Both the position numbers and the translations under genes were made by a program. Below are positions 11,067-17,793 of a stretch of 64,000 nt of DNA, piece by piece. The notes under the pieces were generated by a model. That model saw only the letters and a program-made list of their open reading frames with translations. It was not told where the DNA came from and made no database searches. Each line of letters starts with the position of its first letter. Position 1 is the first letter of the stretch. Origin of the DNA: Candidatus Marinacidobacterales bacterium (GTDB lineage Bacteria > Acidobacteriota > Vicinamibacteria > Marinacidobacterales > SMYC01); assembly GCA_965237955.1 (NCBI GenBank), contig OZ250169.1, forward strand, positions 2,080,001 to 2,144,000, read 5' to 3'.

Positions 11067-14000
11067 TCAGGGGAGCGGGAATTCCACTCCATAGATGACG
11101 CCCTCGTCACTGCCCACGTAGATCATGGAGTTCAGCAAGTCCATCGTGGGCGCGCCCACTGCGGCTGTGCCGTCGCCAAGAGTGACGCTCGTCGTCGGAA
11201 GCGGCGTGATGACATCCATCTGATACAAATTGCCGTCGCCCGAGCCGGCGATCACCATAGTGGAGCCCGGCACATAGAGAGGCGTCGACGGGGACGGCAC
11301 CTCCGCGCTGGTCACAGGCCAACCAGGGTTGACGGCACCACTCCCGCCACTGTCGGCGATGGACCAGATTTTCCCGTTGGTCGACGCGAACAGATTGATG
11401 GAGCCGAACTGCGGAAAGATGAAGCTCTTGATCACACCGTCTGCGAGTGGGAGCGACCAGTTGACATCGCCGGTGGCCGCGTCGAGAGCGTACACGACAC
11501 CGGCGTTCGTGCCCACGTACACGGTCGTGCCGAGTAGAATCGGGCTCCCGTCGATGTTCCCGTAAGCCTTGGCCCAGACGATGCTCGGCAAGCCCGAATC
11601 GAAGTCGATACACCACACCGTATTGGAGCTGCCCCCGGACTTCTCCCTCGACGTAAAGATGACGCGGCGATTCGCGTAGTCCACGGAGGCGCCACCGCTA
11701 ATGATGCCGATGTCCGTGTCGTCGCCTCCGTAGGCGGCAGAGTTGTCGAAGCTCCACACCGGGGTTCCCGACGTGACATCGAGAGCTTCGAGCGTGTTGG
11801 GGGAGGACGCGCTCCGGGTACCAACGAGAATGAGATCCTTGGCGAGTGCGTTGTAGAAGAGGAAGTTCCCCGCTGGCGCAGCTTGTACCATCGAGGCAAT
11901 CGACTGGCTCCACTCTTCCATCCCGCTCACGGCATCGACGGCATACACCACGCCGTTCTGAGCGCCGACGAAGGCCGCTCCACTGGTCGCGCCGCCTACC
12001 GCGAAGGGAACGACCGGGGGACGCGCTTGCGCGGGAGCGCCGAGAGCGAACGGAATCCATCCAGCCGGCCAATCCCCTCCTGTGCCGTCGCCGTTCACGG
12101 AATGGAGAACCCCGTCGTTCGAGACCGCGTAGACGTAAGCGACGCCCGCGAAGAAACGAAGCCCCGGAGGCGCCATCGATGCGGCGCCGGTCGAGTAAGC
12201 CCACTTGACCGGACCGGGAAGACTGTTGAACGGCCTGGCTCGGAGAAACTTCCCCGCGGTGAACATCGCCGCGCCGTACTCGACGAAAATGGCGTAGTGA
12301 TACTTGGTACCGTTCACAGGGCTCCCGTCGATCACGTCTTGCTTCTGGCCTGGCAGGCCAACGCAGGAGCGAACGTCGATGGACAGCCCGTCGAATGGAC
12401 CCGTCGGTTGCACGGTGTTCCTGACGACATGGGTGTTGTCGCAGGCGCCGAAGAAGGGGTTGACCCACTCCAGCTTCACCTGGTTGTTCGTGGCGGTGGC
12501 GGTGAAGAACGGGACGTCGGTGGCATCGGTGATGGTGATGACTTTGTCATCGAAGCCGACGATGGTCCCAAAGTTGTCGACCTCGAGCTCGAGGTTGCCG
12601 ACCCCGGGCGCGGCGAAGTTCACGAACTCGAGACCGGAGACGGAGATGAACTCGCCCGGTGCGAACGGAGCGGTAACGTTGATGACGAGGATCGTCGGGC
12701 TGGCGTAGCTGACCGTCGTCGAGACCTTGGAGGCCGCGTTGCCGCCGATGATCGCCGAGGTGAGGGTCGTATTCCACTCCATGGCCAGAGAGCCGGGAAT
12801 GTGGATGCGAATGTCATCGGTGGCGTTGATGAAGGCGACGGCGCCCTCGCTGATGAACAAGGACTCGGCTGGTGACGGGCCTGGCCCCACGGTGAAGAAC
12901 TGATGGTCGAACGAAGACAAGCTCGGGTTGGCGCTCGGTGCGATGGCGATGGTTTTGTCGTCGAGCGCAGAAGCCAGGCCATCGTTCGCGACCTCGAGCT
13001 CGAGGTTGTCGAGAGGCGATGGCGCGGTGAAGCTGAAGAACTGCAAGAGGTCGATCGTGATGAAATCGCCCGGAGAGAAGTCGGTCACGACGTCGAGGAC
13101 CACGGTCTGATCGAGATCCTCGTAGGCCTTGATCGTCGGGTCGACTTTGGCGAACGCGCTGCCGCCGAGAGCGACGGACGTCACCGAGCTGTCCCACCGC
13201 ATGTTGAAGCCCGCGGGAATGCGGATTCGCAGATCCTTGACCGCGGTAATCGTCGCTGCGCCCGGATCGTCCGTGATCGTGACCAAGGCCGCAGGCGTGT
13301 CGGGATCGCCTACGGTGAAGCTCTGGGCCGTGGCGGAGGAGATTCTCGGCGCACCTCCGGCGAGCACATCATCGGCACCGATGTCCCACGGGCTCGAGCG
13401 GTTGGCGCCATCGATATCGACCAAGAAGAAGCTGCTCAGATCGGTTCCAGCGTCTTCAGCCGCGCTGCCCGCGATGATGTGGAGGTCTTCCGTCCCGGGC
13501 GTCGTCGAGATGAACAAAAAATTGGCCAGCGGCACGTTGTCCATGCCGCCTCCCAAAGGGCTATGGGCTATGCCGGTGGCGTCGCCGGAAAAGTTGTCGC
13601 TGCTGGTGGCCGCGACCGGCGTCACCGCGAAATCGGCCGTGGTGTTGCTGTGAGCGATGTTGTTCCTCAAGAAGGTCGACGCATTGCCCGTTCCTTCGAA
13701 ACCAGGCGCCGCGCAGTTGTACACCGTGTTGTTGAAGAACCTGCCCACGTTCGGCTGCGAGGTCATCCGAACGCCGCTTCGTCCCAACGTGTAAAGGATG
13801 TTGTTGAAGAAATCGATGTTGGTATCAGCGTCACGCAGTTCCAAGCCGTCTCGCGGCATGTCGTGGATGATGTTGTTGCGAATCACGATTTGGTTGGACG
13901 CATTCTGAGAGTTGGTTTCGAACGCGTTGGGACTTCCGCTGGAGCCCGTGATCTCCAGCCACTCCACCGTAACGAAAGCGTCCTCGATCAAGACCGCCTC

Positions 14001-15491
14001 AGCGCCGGTGCTCAAATCGATGACGACCCCGGTACCGGCGACGCCACGGTGGCGGTTGCGGACGGCGGCGGTGAGGATGATGGGATGCGACGCATCCGTC
14101 GTGGCTCCGTCGATGACGAGGGGATCGGTGAAGGGGGCGTCGTTGTAGGCGACGCCGACCTCCATGCGATCGTCGGCGACGAGGTCGGAGCTGGCGACGG
14201 GGAAGTAACTACAGGGTCCGCCGTCGACACAGTCCTCCCACGCCGGCATCGTCGGATACTGCCGCGAGATCGTGTATGGGCCGGAGAAACTGGTGGCCGC
14301 GGGTTGGGTCAGCGTGAGCTGGGCTTCGGAATCGACCGACAGGATGACGTAGTCGGTACCGCCGATGTCGATACGATCACCCCGACCTCGGTTCGCACTT
14401 TGCCAGGCGACGCCGGTGCCGGTGACGATCGCAGAGCCAGCGGTCGCGCTCACGGTTCCGGCCACGTAATCCGGCGCGGTACCGATGGAGCGATACCACA
14501 CCGGGGGATCGAGGCTATAACCGACCAGATAGAGATCCCTCTGTGTATCGCCGACTTTCTGTTCGAAGATATTGGCCGAGTCGACCCCGATCGAGGCGAA
14601 GGCGTGTGTCTGATCCAGATAGAAGTCTTCGGTATCGCCGTTTCGCCGCAGCGCTGTCTGATAAGCCGAGTCGTTCGTGCTGTGGAGCTCGACGAAGGCG
14701 CCGTTGACGCGGTTACCACCAATGTCGGCGGTGATGTCCACATCCTGGTACGCGCCCGCGGAGGATGTCGACTTATCGACTCCGTTCGCGATGAAAACGG
14801 CGCCATGGGTGACGTAGCCGACCAGGTAGAGATCTACCAGGCTCGACTCGATCCGCATCTCCGCTTGGTCGGCTCCGTCAACGCCGATGAGGCCCAGGGT
14901 CGCGGCGTTTTTTTCGAGCGCCGAGTATCGATCGTCTCCCGAGCCTTGCCGTCGCAGCGCAAAGCGCTGAGCGGATCCGCTCCGATTGAGGACAGTGAAC
15001 ACGGCGCCGATCGCGGTATCGACGCCGGTATCGGCGGTGATGTCGACGTCAGTCCACGCGCTGGGTGCGACAGACTTGTCGATGCGGTCGGTCAAGAACT
15101 GGACGCTGTTCATCGTGTACGCGTACAAATAGAACTCGAGCGCAGTGTTCTCCGCGTAGATCTCGAACACCCCGTCCGGGTCGAGCCCCGTCATGAGCCA
15201 GGTCTGTTGGCTGTTGATGAGAGTTGACTCGGATTCCCACGGATCGGTGGAGCCATTTTTCCGGATCCCGTACGCGCGGTCGCCGGCGGTCGGGTTGCGC
15301 ACGAGCACGAGAACGCCGGTTGCGCCAGGCGGGACATAGGTCGACACGTCCACATCCACCCACGCGCCCGCAACGCCGACCGATACATCGGCCGGCGCAG
15401 GCAAGTAGTTGAACGCGGGGGCGGCGCTAAGCGCTTGCGTGCACAAAAGAGTGCCCAGCAGCGCCTTAGTGAGTTGCAGGCGTTTCAGCAT
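11067..15491 (-). CDS. Large secreted mosaic surface protein (3 N-terminal repeats, beta-helix, Ig/FN3-like modules, PQQ-like beta-propeller)
   Basis: Signal peptide MLKRLQLTKALLGTLLCTQALSA; NNII/NNTV beta-helix; DIDG..R..PWDIGAD; repeated VYA[VL]DA.xG...W propeller blades; start set at 15491 because a sigma54 site overlaps the 15536 ATG. Confidence 0.85.
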   Translation of the reverse strand: MLKRLQLTKALLGTLLCTQALSAAPAFNYLPAPADVSVGVAGAWVDVDVSTYVPPGATGVLVLVRNPTAGDRAYGIRKNGSTDPWESESTLINSQQTWLMTGLDPDGVFEIYAENTALEFYLYAYTMNSVQFLTDRIDKSVAPSAWTDVDITADTGVDTAIGAVFTVLNRSGSAQRFALRRQGSGDDRYSALEKNAATLGLIGVDGADQAEMRIESSLVDLYLVGYVTHGAVFIANGVDKSTSSAGAYQDVDITADIGGNRVNGAFVELHSTNDSAYQTALRRNGDTEDFYLDQTHAFASIGVDSANIFEQKVGDTQRDLYLVGYSLDPPVWYRSIGTAPDYVAGTVSATAGSAIVTGTGVAWQSANRGRGDRIDIGGTDYVILSVDSEAQLTLTQPAATSFSGPYTISRQYPTMPAWEDCVDGGPCSYFPVASSDLVADDRMEVGVAYNDAPFTDPLVIDGATTDASHPIILTAAVRNRHRGVAGTGVVIDLSTGAEAVLIEDAFVTVEWLEITGSSGSPNAFETNSQNASNQIVIRNNIIHDMPRDGLELRDADTNIDFFNNILYTLGRSGVRMTSQPNVGRFFNNTVYNCAAPGFEGTGNASTFLRNNIAHSNTTADFAVTPVAATSSDNFSGDATGIAHSPLGGGMDNVPLANFLFISTTPGTEDLHIIAGSAAEDAGTDLSSFFLVDIDGANRSSPWDIGADDVLAGGAPRISSATAQSFTVGDPDTPAALVTITDDPGAATITAVKDLRIRIPAGFNMRWDSSVTSVALGGSAFAKVDPTIKAYEDLDQTVVLDVVTDFSPGDFITIDLLQFFSFTAPSPLDNLELEVANDGLASALDDKTIAIAPSANPSLSSFDHQFFTVGPGPSPAESLFISEGAVAFINATDDIRIHIPGSLAMEWNTTLTSAIIGGNAASKVSTTVSYASPTILVINVTAPFAPGEFISVSGLEFVNFAAPGVGNLELEVDNFGTIVGFDDKVITITDATDVPFFTATATNNQVKLEWVNPFFGACDNTHVVRNTVQPTGPFDGLSIDVRSCVGLPGQKQDVIDGSPVNGTKYHYAIFVEYGAAMFTAGKFLRARPFNSLPGPVKWAYSTGAASMAPPGLRFFAGVAYVYAVSNDGVLHSVNGDGTGGDWPAGWIPFALGAPAQARPPVVPFAVGGATSGAAFVGAQNGVVYAVDAVSGMEEWSQSIASMVQAAPAGNFLFYNALAKDLILVGTRSASSPNTLEALDVTSGTPVWSFDNSAAYGGDDTDIGIISGGASVDYANRRVIFTSREKSGGSSNTVWCIDFDSGLPSIVWAKAYGNIDGSPILLGTTVYVGTNAGVVYALDAATGDVNWSLPLADGVIKSFIFPQFGSINLFASTNGKIWSIADSGGSGAVNPGWPVTSAEVPSPSTPLYVPGSTMVIAGSGDGNLYQMDVITPLPTTSVTLGDGTAAVGAPTMDLLNSMIYVGSDEGVIYGVEFPLP

Positions 15492-15524
15492 GAGAGAACC
15501 CCAGAAAGGCACCAGGCTATGCAC

Positions 15525-15574
15525 TGCAAGCTCCATACCGTCTCGTTACAAAAACGCCTAGTAAGCCACTGATA
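15525..15574 (-). promoter_or_regulatory. Sigma54 -24/-12 promoter plus IHF-like site for the large surface protein
   Basis: CGGTATGGAGCTTGCA (GG-N10-GC) at 15540-15525; TATCAGTGGCTTA (WATCAR-N4-TTR) at 15574-15562. Confidence 0.65.
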
Positions 15575-15707: not shown

Positions 15708-15784
15708 TGGTAGCGGGGGGCGGACTTGAACCGCCGACCTAAGGGTTATGAGTCCTTCGCTCTCACCATCTGAGCTACCCCGCC
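15708..15784 (-). tRNA. tRNA-Met (CAT), probably elongator
   Basis: GGCGGGGTAGCTCAGATGGTGAGAGCGAAGGACTCATAACCCTTAGGTCGGCGGTTCAAGTCCGCCCCCCGCTACCA; cloverleaf with encoded CCA; paired position 1:72 and no 3 G-C anticodon pairs, so not initiator. Confidence 0.93.
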
Positions 15785-15845: not shown

Positions 15846-15861
15846 TGGCACTCGTTTTGCT
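15846..15861 (+). promoter_or_regulatory. Near-consensus sigma54 promoter
   Basis: TGGCACTCGTTTTGCT versus consensus TGGCACRNNNTTGCW. Confidence 0.8.
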
Positions 15862-15871
15862 TTACCCCCCA

Positions 15872-16030
15872 ATTAGCCCTTCATTGTGGCGAACCTGTTC
15901 CGTCATGAAACGGTAGCGCCGGATCGATTGTGTCGAAACGGAACCGGTTGTTTGGGCGAGGCCGAACCTGGATCTTCGGATCCGCGGTTGGGGGAGCGGC
16001 CTCGCCCTTACTCCGTTCAGGAGCCACAAA
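15872..16030 (+). ncRNA. Candidate structured non-coding RNA
   Basis: Closing stem 15884-15890/16023-16029, stem 15892-15903/15938-15949, perfect 11-bp stem 15954-15964/15997-16007 with inner GGATC-TTCG-GATCC; follows a sigma54 promoter. Confidence 0.55.
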
Positions 16031-16139
16031 ATCCAAAAAAGCTCACCGCAGAGGCGCAAAAGACGCAGAGGTTCGCAGAGCGAATCCGAGACCGGCCAAA
16101 ATCTCTTGTGGGCCGTGACAACACCCTTTCCAAGTCCAG

Positions 16140-16412
16140 ATCCAGGAGAAGCGCTTCCGATCCGGCCTGAGCATCGCCGCTGAATCCTCGGGAGAGCGGT
16201 TCCGGGTCATGGATGTGAAGTCCAACTCACCCGCGTACTTCGCCGGACTCCGGCGCGGACACATGATTTCCGAGATCGACACCAAGCCCGCGAGCCACTA
16301 TTCGCTCGACGAAGCGCGGCGAGCGCTTCGCGCCGACGGCACTCACCCACTCACGCTCATCGAGAGCGGTGGGAAAAAGCACAAGATCAATCTCGAGCTT
16401 CCGAGCATGTAG
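16140..16412 (+). pseudogene. Orphan C-terminal PDZ domain fragment
   Basis: SGLSIAAE...VMDVKSNSPAYFAGLRRGHMISEID, a PDZ signature with no N-terminal part. Confidence 0.6.
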
Positions 16413-16503: not shown

Positions 16504-17793
16504 ATGCGACGGCGTGAGTTCCTGTTCAGTCTTTGGGCACTTGCGTTTCGTCAACGTCCTCGGCTTCGTGTCGATGGCGCGCGGTTGAACAGCACCCTTA
16601 CGGAACTCTCACAGTTTGGACGGACGCCTGAAGGGGGGATCAGCCGGGTGGCCTATAGCGACGCCGATCTCGACGGGCGGGCTTACGCCATGAGACTCAT
16701 GCGGCAAGCGGGGCTCGATGTGACGATCGATTTTGCCGGCAACATCCTCGGGAGGCGCCGGGGAATTGATCCGGATGTGCCGCCGCTCATGTTCGGGTCC
16801 CACACGGACTCCGTACCTCATGGCGGGAACTATGACGGTCAAGTCGGCTCGATGGCGGCGATCGAAATCGCGCAAACGCTCGAGGACGCCAGGGTCACGA
16901 CGCGGCATCCACTCGAGGTCGTCATCTTCCAGAACGAGGAGAACGGCAAGACCGGAAGCCGCGCGATGGTGGGTGAGCTCACCGACGGCGAGCTCGACCA
17001 GCCGTCCCATACCGACAAGACGCTCGGCGAGGGCATCGCATTCATCGGTGGCGATCCGGGGCGGCTCGACGAGGCCGGGCGCCGGCCGGGCGACATTGCG
17101 GCGTATCTCGAGCTTCACATCGAGCAGGGAGCGATCCTGTACGAGAAGTCCATCGACATCGGGATCGTCGAAGGTATCGTCGGCATCAAACGCTGGAACG
17201 TGACCATCCGAGGCCGCGCGAACCACGCGGGCACCACGCCCATGGGCCAGCGTCACGACGCGATGCTGACCGCCGGCAGGTTCGTCGACGCGGTCCATCG
17301 CGTCGCCACCGAGCTTCCGGGTCGCCAGGTCGCGACGGTCGGCCGCATCGCGGCCCATCCCGGCGCGCCGAACGTGATCCCGGGCGAGGTCACGCTGTCG
17401 CTCGAAATTCGGGATCTCGAGATGACGAAAATCGACGAGGTCTACCGGGGCATCGAGAAACAAGGTCAAGCACTCGCCGCAAGGAATGGCACGAGCATCG
17501 AGCTGCAACAATACTATGTGAGCCGCTCCGCGCCGACGGACGAGCGACTTCGACGACTCGTGGCCGACGCCTCCGAAGCTCTGGGTCTGTCGACGCACTC
17601 GATGCCGTCAGGCGCCGGACACGACGCGCAGAGCATCGCCCTCCTCGCGCCGGTGGGGATGATCTTCATCCCGAGCGTCGATGGCATCAGCCACTCCCCC
17701 GACGAGCTCTCGCGCCCGAGCGACATCGAAGCCGGCACGAACGTTCTCCTGCAAACGCTTCTCGCCACCGACCGCCTCGACCTCCCCGGTTGA
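16504..17793 (+). CDS. M20 Zn-dependent amidohydrolase (allantoate/N-carbamoyl-amino acid hydrolase family)
   Basis: GSHTDSVPHGGNYDG, NEE, ELHIEQG, NHAGTTPM, SGAGHDAQ; RR-containing N-terminus. Confidence 0.92.
   Translation: MRRREFLFSLWALAFRQRPRLRVDGARLNSTLTELSQFGRTPEGGISRVAYSDADLDGRAYAMRLMRQAGLDVTIDFAGNILGRRRGIDPDVPPLMFGSHTDSVPHGGNYDGQVGSMAAIEIAQTLEDARVTTRHPLEVVIFQNEENGKTGSRAMVGELTDGELDQPSHTDKTLGEGIAFIGGDPGRLDEAGRRPGDIAAYLELHIEQGAILYEKSIDIGIVEGIVGIKRWNVTIRGRANHAGTTPMGQRHDAMLTAGRFVDAVHRVATELPGRQVATVGRIAAHPGAPNVIPGEVTLSLEIRDLEMTKIDEVYRGIEKQGQALAARNGTSIELQQYYVSRSAPTDERLRRLVADASEALGLSTHSMPSGAGHDAQSIALLAPVGMIFIPSVDGISHSPDELSRPSDIEAGTNVLLQTLLATDRLDLPG

Follow-up and report, generated by a model that had tools for sequence, protein, structure and literature searches.

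The CsrB/RsmY/RsmZ and CrcZ RNAs comprise paralogs of different size that have only a short displayed motif in common, and CrcZ is driven by sigma54. GlmY is likewise described as sigma54-driven (PMC6075780). In GlmY and GlmZ, the protein RapZ is reported to bind chiefly at a lateral bulge, close to the base of a stem-loop (PMC4737144; structure in PMC9841335), with G132, G137 and G139 mattering for processing (PMC4737144). The Qrr RNAs are reported to be under sigma54 control (PMC10162802). Accounts of Pxr in Myxococcus describe an RNA of ~108 nt with a sigma54 promoter and three stem-loops, in which SL1, SL2 and the SL3 stem are conserved and the SL1 loop is functional; its paralogs have their own promoters, and its site is fixed downstream of pxrR (PMC5684412, PMC5568312). 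RosA and RsaI (Bacillus, Staphylococcus) are presented as G-rich sRNA sponges with unpaired G-rich tracts (PMC8216469), and Acido-1 (RF01686) and Acido-Lenti-1 (RF01687) as stand-alone noncoding motifs of Acidobacteria (PMC2864571).

Here we compare with these RNAs an element in the window, the whole 64,000-nt stretch of DNA that was analysed, which a sequence-only reading had put forward as a structured noncoding RNA. That account was borne out in part; the invariant GGUUGGG bulge of the RNA, and the paralogs that make it one member of a family of three types (A, B and C), had been missed.

The RNA gene and its surroundings

A sigma54 promoter with a start near 15872 had been proposed from the letters. 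The motif TGGCACTCGTTTTGCT proved to be the sole sigma54 match in the window (0.04 expected by shuffling; seen in 4 of 100 shuffles), and its position predicts +1 at 15872, as proposed; the divergent tRNA-Met neighbour is likewise present. The features of the locus are as follows.

11067-15536, minus strand: surface protein of 1489 aa, beta-helix plus PQQ propeller, between tRNA-Met and prsW
15708..15784, minus strand: tRNA-Met(CAT), divergent; one orthologous group retains it as a neighbour of the RNA, most paralogs lack it there
15846..15861, plus strand: sigma54 -24/-12 promoter motif TGGCAC-N5-TTGCT, kept before homologs
15872..16012, plus strand: predicted type A sRNA; 3' end approximate, the U tail of the window copy being weak
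15876..15890, plus strand: SL1, a small 5' hairpin that competes with the outer stem and is missing in some paralogs
15892..15949, plus strand: SL2, a long hairpin with two near-palindromic 14-mers, consensus CCGTTTCGAAACGG
15895-15908 and 15928-15941, plus strand: the SL2 14-mers
15954..16007, plus strand: SL3, with an 11-bp lower helix, a variable upper hairpin and a 3'-side bulge
15986..15992, plus strand: the GGUUGGG motif of the bulge, identical in all 23 aligned copies and likely the functional site
16023..16029, plus strand: GCCACAA, the 3' half of the lineage-specific outer stem, which is no general trait of the family
16035..16084, plus strand: dispersed short repeat (CACCGCAGAG...CGCAGAG), unrelated to the RNA, with 13 other genomic copies
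16209..16412, plus strand: PDZ-domain remnant, Pfam PDZ_6 over cut-off
from 16504: first intact downstream CDS, an M20 peptidase

The promoter travels with the RNA. Using a model of the RNA without its promoter (R1, eight training sequences), we found the sigma54 motif before all eight training copies and all 16 independent ones; in eight sequences it stands at a constant distance from the onset of conservation. Directly upstream of each of the 16 non-training R1 hits (E<=1e-6) lies TGGC-N7-TTGC, a pattern that occurs 402 times in the genome (16 Mb, both strands), so that its chance of appearing there by accident is about 1e-3 per hit. Seven weaker R1 hits lack the motif; one of these is the 3' part of a copy into which an IS has inserted. 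The host has rpoN together with about 20 enhancer-binding proteins, and rpoN was found in 52 of 55 genomes. Two RNA-labelled runs gave reads only over the tRNA and the dispersed repeat, and these came from other organisms. Judged from sequence, the element is very probably a real transcribed noncoding RNA, apparently transcribed from about 15872 by sigma54 polymerase.

The stems of both arms in the earlier fold are present, with 11 of 12 pairs in arm 1 and an 11-bp helix in arm 2 (15954-64/15997-16007). Folding is stronger than in shuffles (z = -3.5 for 15872-16035 and -3.3 for 15872-16012); the reverse strand does about equally well (z = -3.8), and the strand cannot be told from folding alone. 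The closed multibranch form, although its stems exist in the window, is held together by a lineage-specific outer stem: among seven sequences compared, TTGTGGC/GCCACAA is favoured only in the window copy and one close relative (p~1), is weak in two further relatives (0.13-0.26) and is absent from three more distant homologs, in which these bases are taken up by a 5' hairpin or by pairing inside the RNA body. The cUUCGg tetraloop was also correctly located in the window (15974-79), but only 6 of 23 type A copies have it. In the window copy, GGUU of the bulge may pair weakly with AACC. Two GAAACGG copies, taken earlier as a hint of a switch, belong instead to the two conserved near-palindromic 14-mers of SL2, which can be read as DNA sites too.

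Type A copies measure ~130-180 nt. They have a long, variable hairpin in the middle and another at the 3' end, and some also have one at the 5' end. Their helices show compensatory changes. Across 23 copies, 25 of 37 pairs change on both sides and pairing holds in 89.8% of cells, against 78.1% in shuffled and 34-47% in slid controls, in an alignment fitted to the model and with kin copies that are not independent; in a MAFFT alignment, 13 of 18 pairs covary. The lower helix of SL3, located by regex, has paired bases in 229 of 230 cells, and A-U/G-C, G-C/A-U and C-G/U-A swaps occur among them. Its sequence is largely kept, G-C being the commonest pair (27-29 of 30 at five positions), whereas all six pairs of the upper helix vary on both sides.

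Conservation might instead reside in the DNA, with the 14-bp palindromes of SL2 acting as a downstream enhancer or operator pair and the RNA arising as a by-product. The spacing of the sites suits such a role: site 1 begins at +14/15 or at +24 to +26, ~11 bp separating the two settings, and the sites stand 31-35 bp apart in 12 of the 20 copies listed. Moreover, type A is without the upstream enhancer pair that type B has. An enhancer common to type A copies was sought upstream and not found, the upstream enhancer score of the window copy (6.1) is below the 95th percentile of random windows (7.8), and none of the 53 flanking ORFs scanned is an enhancer-binding gene. As a full account this is improbable: it leaves SL3, the bulge, the U tails and the helix covariation unexplained, the palindrome pair is not present in strong form at the other sigma54 promoters of the genome, and a regulon for the SL2 palindrome was sought in the genome and not found. 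Because the window copy lacks a clear upstream enhancer, however, the palindromes may serve as DNA sites alongside an RNA function.

We also weighed two other readings, a cis-acting leader or attenuator of the downstream gene and a gene for a small protein (ORF 15886-16170). For the first, the next gene points the same way as the RNA at 10 of 22 loci, the window included; for the second, three close relatives keep the ORF start. At the other 12 loci, however, the next gene is convergent, and neighbours differ from locus to locus, so that the constant co-directional gene class typical of a riboswitch or attenuator is missing. No called ORF overlaps the RNA at any of the 22 loci. The ORF itself has no Pfam match, its length varies over four close relatives (94, 44, 69 and >97 codons), and three more distant ones lack such a start; it is not conserved. 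In a related strain, 602 other bases replace 16033-16144, a variable region with the CGCAGAG repeat. The cis or coding reading is therefore very improbable and largely refuted. Since the next gene is convergent at more than half of the loci (12 of 22), action in trans is the most likely mode.

Downstream, the sequence-only reading had seen no credible gene for over 600 bp. The first intact CDS does begin only at 16504, but the PDZ fragment lies in between. In three relatives the RNA is followed by an ATPase gene whose C-terminal PDZ shares 72% identity with this fragment, which looks like a remnant. On the other side, tRNA-Met adjoins the RNA at four of the 24 loci from genomes, each with a PrsW gene directly beyond the tRNA, and in 18 of the 33 metagenome members. 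By gene order, the window copy belongs to this PrsW - tRNA-Met - RNA - ATPase/PDZ ortholog group. The suggested co-regulation with the surface protein found no support: tblastn gave no match to that protein in 24 homolog loci (+-1.5 to 2.5 kb), and since PrsW directly follows tRNA-Met in four loci, the surface gene looks like a local insertion. Partial paralogs of the surface protein occur elsewhere in the genome.

Family members, types and range

A DNA search of 40 relatives matched 12, seven of them with the RNA body; the other five matched the dispersed repeat or are chance matches without promoter. R1 recovered genuine copies in 14 of 18 same-family genomes, two further copies in the genome of the window and, in a second family, one copy in one of seven genomes. 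Further RNAs carrying the module came from R2, a model of SL3 alone. Model R3 detects members in two families, in 14 of 16 genomes of one and 7 of 8 of the other, and in none of 16 genomes of a third; a few of the weakest rows in these counts are plain terminators. Positive genomes have 1-8 matches each. Applied to 150 other Acidobacteriota genomes, R3 gave nothing convincing, with two weak matches. Dropped from the counts were L050, L057, L058, L061 and L063 (weak and without promoter) and L117, L119, L120, L122, L124-L130 and L152 (plain terminators). The family was thus found in two of the three families of one order (Vicinamibacteria, Marinacidobacterales).

With the 3' strand of the last helix left out of the pattern, a scan over 185,579 species yielded 31 loci. 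The helix is completed (9-10 of 10 pairs) in fifteen of them, placed by their titles in Acidobacteriota, Vicinamibacteria or Marinacidobacterales. The remaining 16, from non-acidobacterial records, look like chance matches: 14 have <=8 of 10 pairs, and the two that reach 9-10 are without the family fold. In metagenomes, 33 of 58 pattern matches complete the helix; viral contigs gave three pattern matches, none with the promoter motif, and E. coli genomes gave no match. The type B 24-mer is noisy outside the order when three mismatches are allowed, while its exact matches fall in the two carrier families only, among the matches listed.

Searching Rfam 15, including 6S, SRP, RNase P, tmRNA, the two Acido motifs, Pxr, Qrr, GlmY/GlmZ and CrcZ, gave no match over the element at gathering score or at E<=10 (tRNA only), and no family matches on 11 family loci (E<=5); 6S, tmRNA, SRP-like and RNase P-like motifs lie elsewhere in the genome. 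A full-text literature search, with most subscription journals and motif-survey supplements outside its scope, found no such RNA named, nothing on 'Marinacidobacter' and no account of a regulatory RNA in these Acidobacteria of marine, sediment and soil origin. In aggregate, promoter spacing, covariation, intergenic position and the lack of an Rfam or literature match support the initial proposal of an undescribed sigma54-driven regulatory RNA.

The genome of the window carries six family members:

C1:2095872, plus strand: type A (the window copy)
C1:6036543, minus strand: type A
C1:6037731, minus strand: type A
C1:2707599-2707825, plus strand: type B (L097), ~225 nt, sigma54
C1:4537292-4537462, plus strand: type C, TTGAC-type promoter
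C1:~5761997-5762150, minus strand: type C, TTGAC-type promoter

Type B RNAs (~185-230 nt) are sigma54-led, have a nearly invariant 3' domain and are convergent to a DUF2090 gene in 13 of 13 loci. Paired enhancer-like sites stand at -118 to -177 in 11 of 12 loci; the twelfth has a single site, and a score for the same site is also seen at four further sigma54 motifs of the genome. At one locus (L141 1964-2252, one genome), the type B 3' module is duplicated in tandem. Type C RNAs lie behind TTGAC-type (sigma70-type) promoters, and three copies end in a stem plus UCCA. The type C members of this genome and L121, L147, L149 and L153 have a common 5' motif, AAGGCGAU...GGCCACGGCUG, whose pairing with AGCCGUG(CGCC) of the 3' hairpin is a possible pseudoknot or switch.

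Other observations concern single loci. One type A copy is cut inside SL3 by an IS with a DUF772 transposase (L044 1501-1616 / L055 ~1570-1622), and metagenome contig L199 holds a near-identical intact form. Downstream of a metG-like gene, a hairpin region (C1:~5709300-5709420, minus strand) has two GGUUGGGG copies, is without a sigma54 motif and is possibly a further relative of the family. In genus g5, and not in other genera, one paralog lies ~2.3 kb from an RRM gene (G004:C71, G011:C24).

The GUUGGG bulge and its candidate partners

The core common to types A, B and C is GUUGGG. In type A, GGUUGGG sits in a bulge on the 3' side of SL3 and is identical in 23 of 23 copies. In a set of 65 members, which includes near-duplicates and was selected on the motif, the mean unpaired probability of the bulge motif exceeds 0.5 in 56, and 48 have G in the last place of GUUGGG-N-G. 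A U-rich tail (>=5 T in 8 nt) follows the module in 41 of 65 sigma54-led members and is weak in the window copy. The geometry of the module is fixed on RNAs whose 5' halves are otherwise unrelated, and 0 of 52 simple terminators of this genome begin with GGCGRG.

We tentatively favour a reading, somewhat short of probable, in which the GUUGGG bulge is a decoy that titrates an RNA-binding protein. Sigma54 polymerase would produce a ~140-nt stand-alone RNA from about 15872, presumably terminating at SL3, where the displayed bulge would bind and titrate the protein as GlmY or the Csr/Rsm decoys do. The RNA would work in trans, and paralogs with different 5' parts and promoters (sigma54 for types A and B, sigma70-type for C) would feed their signals into one protein pool. 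We lean this way because the geometry is fixed on unrelated 5' halves, because the upper helix varies freely whereas the lower one, which is not the usual terminator sequence (0 of 52), is conserved in sequence, because the module is tandem-duplicated in one genome, and because no complementary target emerged. Against a decoy, CsrB-type decoys usually carry many motif copies, whereas there is normally one GUUGGG motif per RNA in this family.

Searching the host for protein partners, we found two Hfq homologs, five RRM proteins and RapZ, and no match to CsrA, ProQ or Ro60. RapZ is the lead candidate because the bulge resembles that of GlmZ, with the small RRM proteins and the two Hfq homologs as alternatives. 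The likeness is short, 6-7 nt only; R3 scores the GlmY/GlmZ regions at <=4 bits, and where AAC precedes the GlmY/GlmZ bulge the bases here are variable. RapZ was not found in five of five tested genomes of the RNA-less family, and Hfq occurs in every genome of the two carrier families (26 of 26) and was found in none of the third (0 of 28). This third family (f3, small genomes) has rpoN in 27 of 28 genomes, RRM proteins in 0 of 28 and RapZ in 0 of 5, an apparent wholesale loss of post-transcriptional regulators. The co-absence of RNA, Hfq, RRM proteins and RapZ thus counts as one event and picks no partner. The second, divergent Hfq-like gene (C1:7684527-7684853, minus strand, L096) lies beside a gene that we take to be smpB-like, and a second Hfq match is found in most genomes of the two larger families. 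A combined version, in which up to six or more modular decoys per genome titrate RapZ through GUUGGG and the type A palindromes act as the RNA's own downstream sigma54 enhancer, is doubtful as a whole; if true, a RapZ homolog outside Enterobacteria would have its natural RNA ligands in them.

Base-pairing is nearly as likely as a protein decoy. The RNA would then be an sRNA, probably Hfq-assisted, with the bulge as a seed for CCCAAC(C) in mRNAs or C-rich sRNAs, working either as Qrr-like redundant paralogs on mRNAs or as a RosA/RsaI-like sponge of C-rich sRNAs. A short, invariant and mostly unpaired motif (>0.5 in 56 of 65) agrees with this, as do the U tails in 41 of 65, fitting Hfq dependence, and the presence of Hfq throughout the carrier families (26 of 26) and its absence from the third (0 of 28); G-rich sponges (PMC8216469) and redundant paralogs, Qrr1-4 (PMC2632942), are described precedents. 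However, targets were sought by counting in start regions, by permutation, by ranking duplexes and by a family-wide pattern with a control, and no signal emerged. CCCAACC occurs in 27 start regions versus 21 antisense, with no enrichment against permutations; the complement before ribosome-binding sites, at 346 versus 325 in the control (19 genomes), is not enriched; and CCCAAC occurs in 0 of 23 leaders of enhancer-binding proteins, rpoN and hfq, although such tests are weak for a 6-7-nt seed. As a single target, leuA was rejected, its leader site being present in only 1 of 11 same-family genomes. Among 14 intergenic hairpin-loop candidates, hand-listed and inspected by eye, none was a convincing C-rich partner sRNA.

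Two further patterns were noted during these searches. Several CCCCAACC matches fall in promoter spacers. The leuA leaders (L297-L312) have a conserved TTAC(T/C)(T/G)A(T/C)CGGTCGGTAAG just downstream of the leuA promoter, a motif kept in most genomes of the two larger families and resembling a repressor operator.

The bulged helix could also be the core of an RNP or a nuclease substrate, giving the RNA a structural or processing role of a housekeeping kind. The almost invariant type B 3' domain, with one neighbour gene in 13 of 13 loci, and the stem plus UCCA that ends three type C copies point in this direction. Against it stand a copy number that varies from 1 to 8 matches per positive genome, the copy split by an IS, a family that was not found outside two families of one order, and a host in which Ro60 was not found. 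We consider this role unlikely.

A well-supported family with three architectures and one small shared 3' module would form a post-transcriptional hub downstream of sigma54. A short invariant motif and few candidate partners (RapZ, the five RRM proteins and the two Hfq homologs) make the mechanism testable in vitro with purified proteins, for organisms known from metagenome assemblies. Should RapZ be the partner, the result would bear on which RNAs RapZ homologs bind outside Enterobacteria.

Comparison with described RNAs

GlmY and GlmZ resemble the family in having three stem-loops, sigma54 control (GlmY) and a lateral 3'-side bulge near the stem base, where GlmZ 132-139 reads GUUGAGUG and the family GUUGGG-N-G. 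The bulge lies in the terminal hairpin here, in contrast to the central one in GlmY/GlmZ, and the family, with up to six members per genome, is without a single-stranded pairing region before the terminator. There is no Rfam match, R3 gives <=4 bits, and SL1/SL2 homology was not seen. The glmS upstream region holds no CCCAAC site; CCAAC alone occurs, inside an upstream ORF.

The Vibrio RNAs Qrr1-5 also comprise several sigma54 paralogs per genome in Hfq-containing hosts. In contrast, this family has no Rfam match, its types have only the 3' module in common, no enhancer-binding gene stands beside the RNA (53 ORFs) and no target was found. With Pxr the family has in common a sigma54 promoter, three stem-loops, paralogs with their own promoters and a conserved SL3 stem. 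Here, however, SL1 and SL2 vary, the invariant site is in SL3, the context is free and there is no Rfam match.

Like CsrB, RsmY, RsmZ and CrcZ, the family has paralogs of different size with one short displayed motif in common; unlike CsrB and RsmYZ, it lives in a genome where CsrA was not found, has no repeated GGA or CA motifs and displays one motif per RNA. RosA and RsaI match it in their G-rich unpaired tract, and differ in that no C-rich partner was found among the 14 loop candidates. Acido-1 and Acido-Lenti-1 give no score on the element (E<=10) or on 11 family loci (E<=5), and Y RNA is set apart by its Ro60/TROVE partner, which was not found in the host. A T-box, T-loop/D-loop mimicry, a likeness to 23S H92 and anti-SD pairing were weighed by eye and set aside.

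Sequence comparison thus suggests a family that works like the known sigma54 sRNAs GlmY, Qrr, Pxr and CrcZ while failing membership of each. What appears new is the 3' bulged-helix module, absent from Rfam and shared by three RNA architectures.
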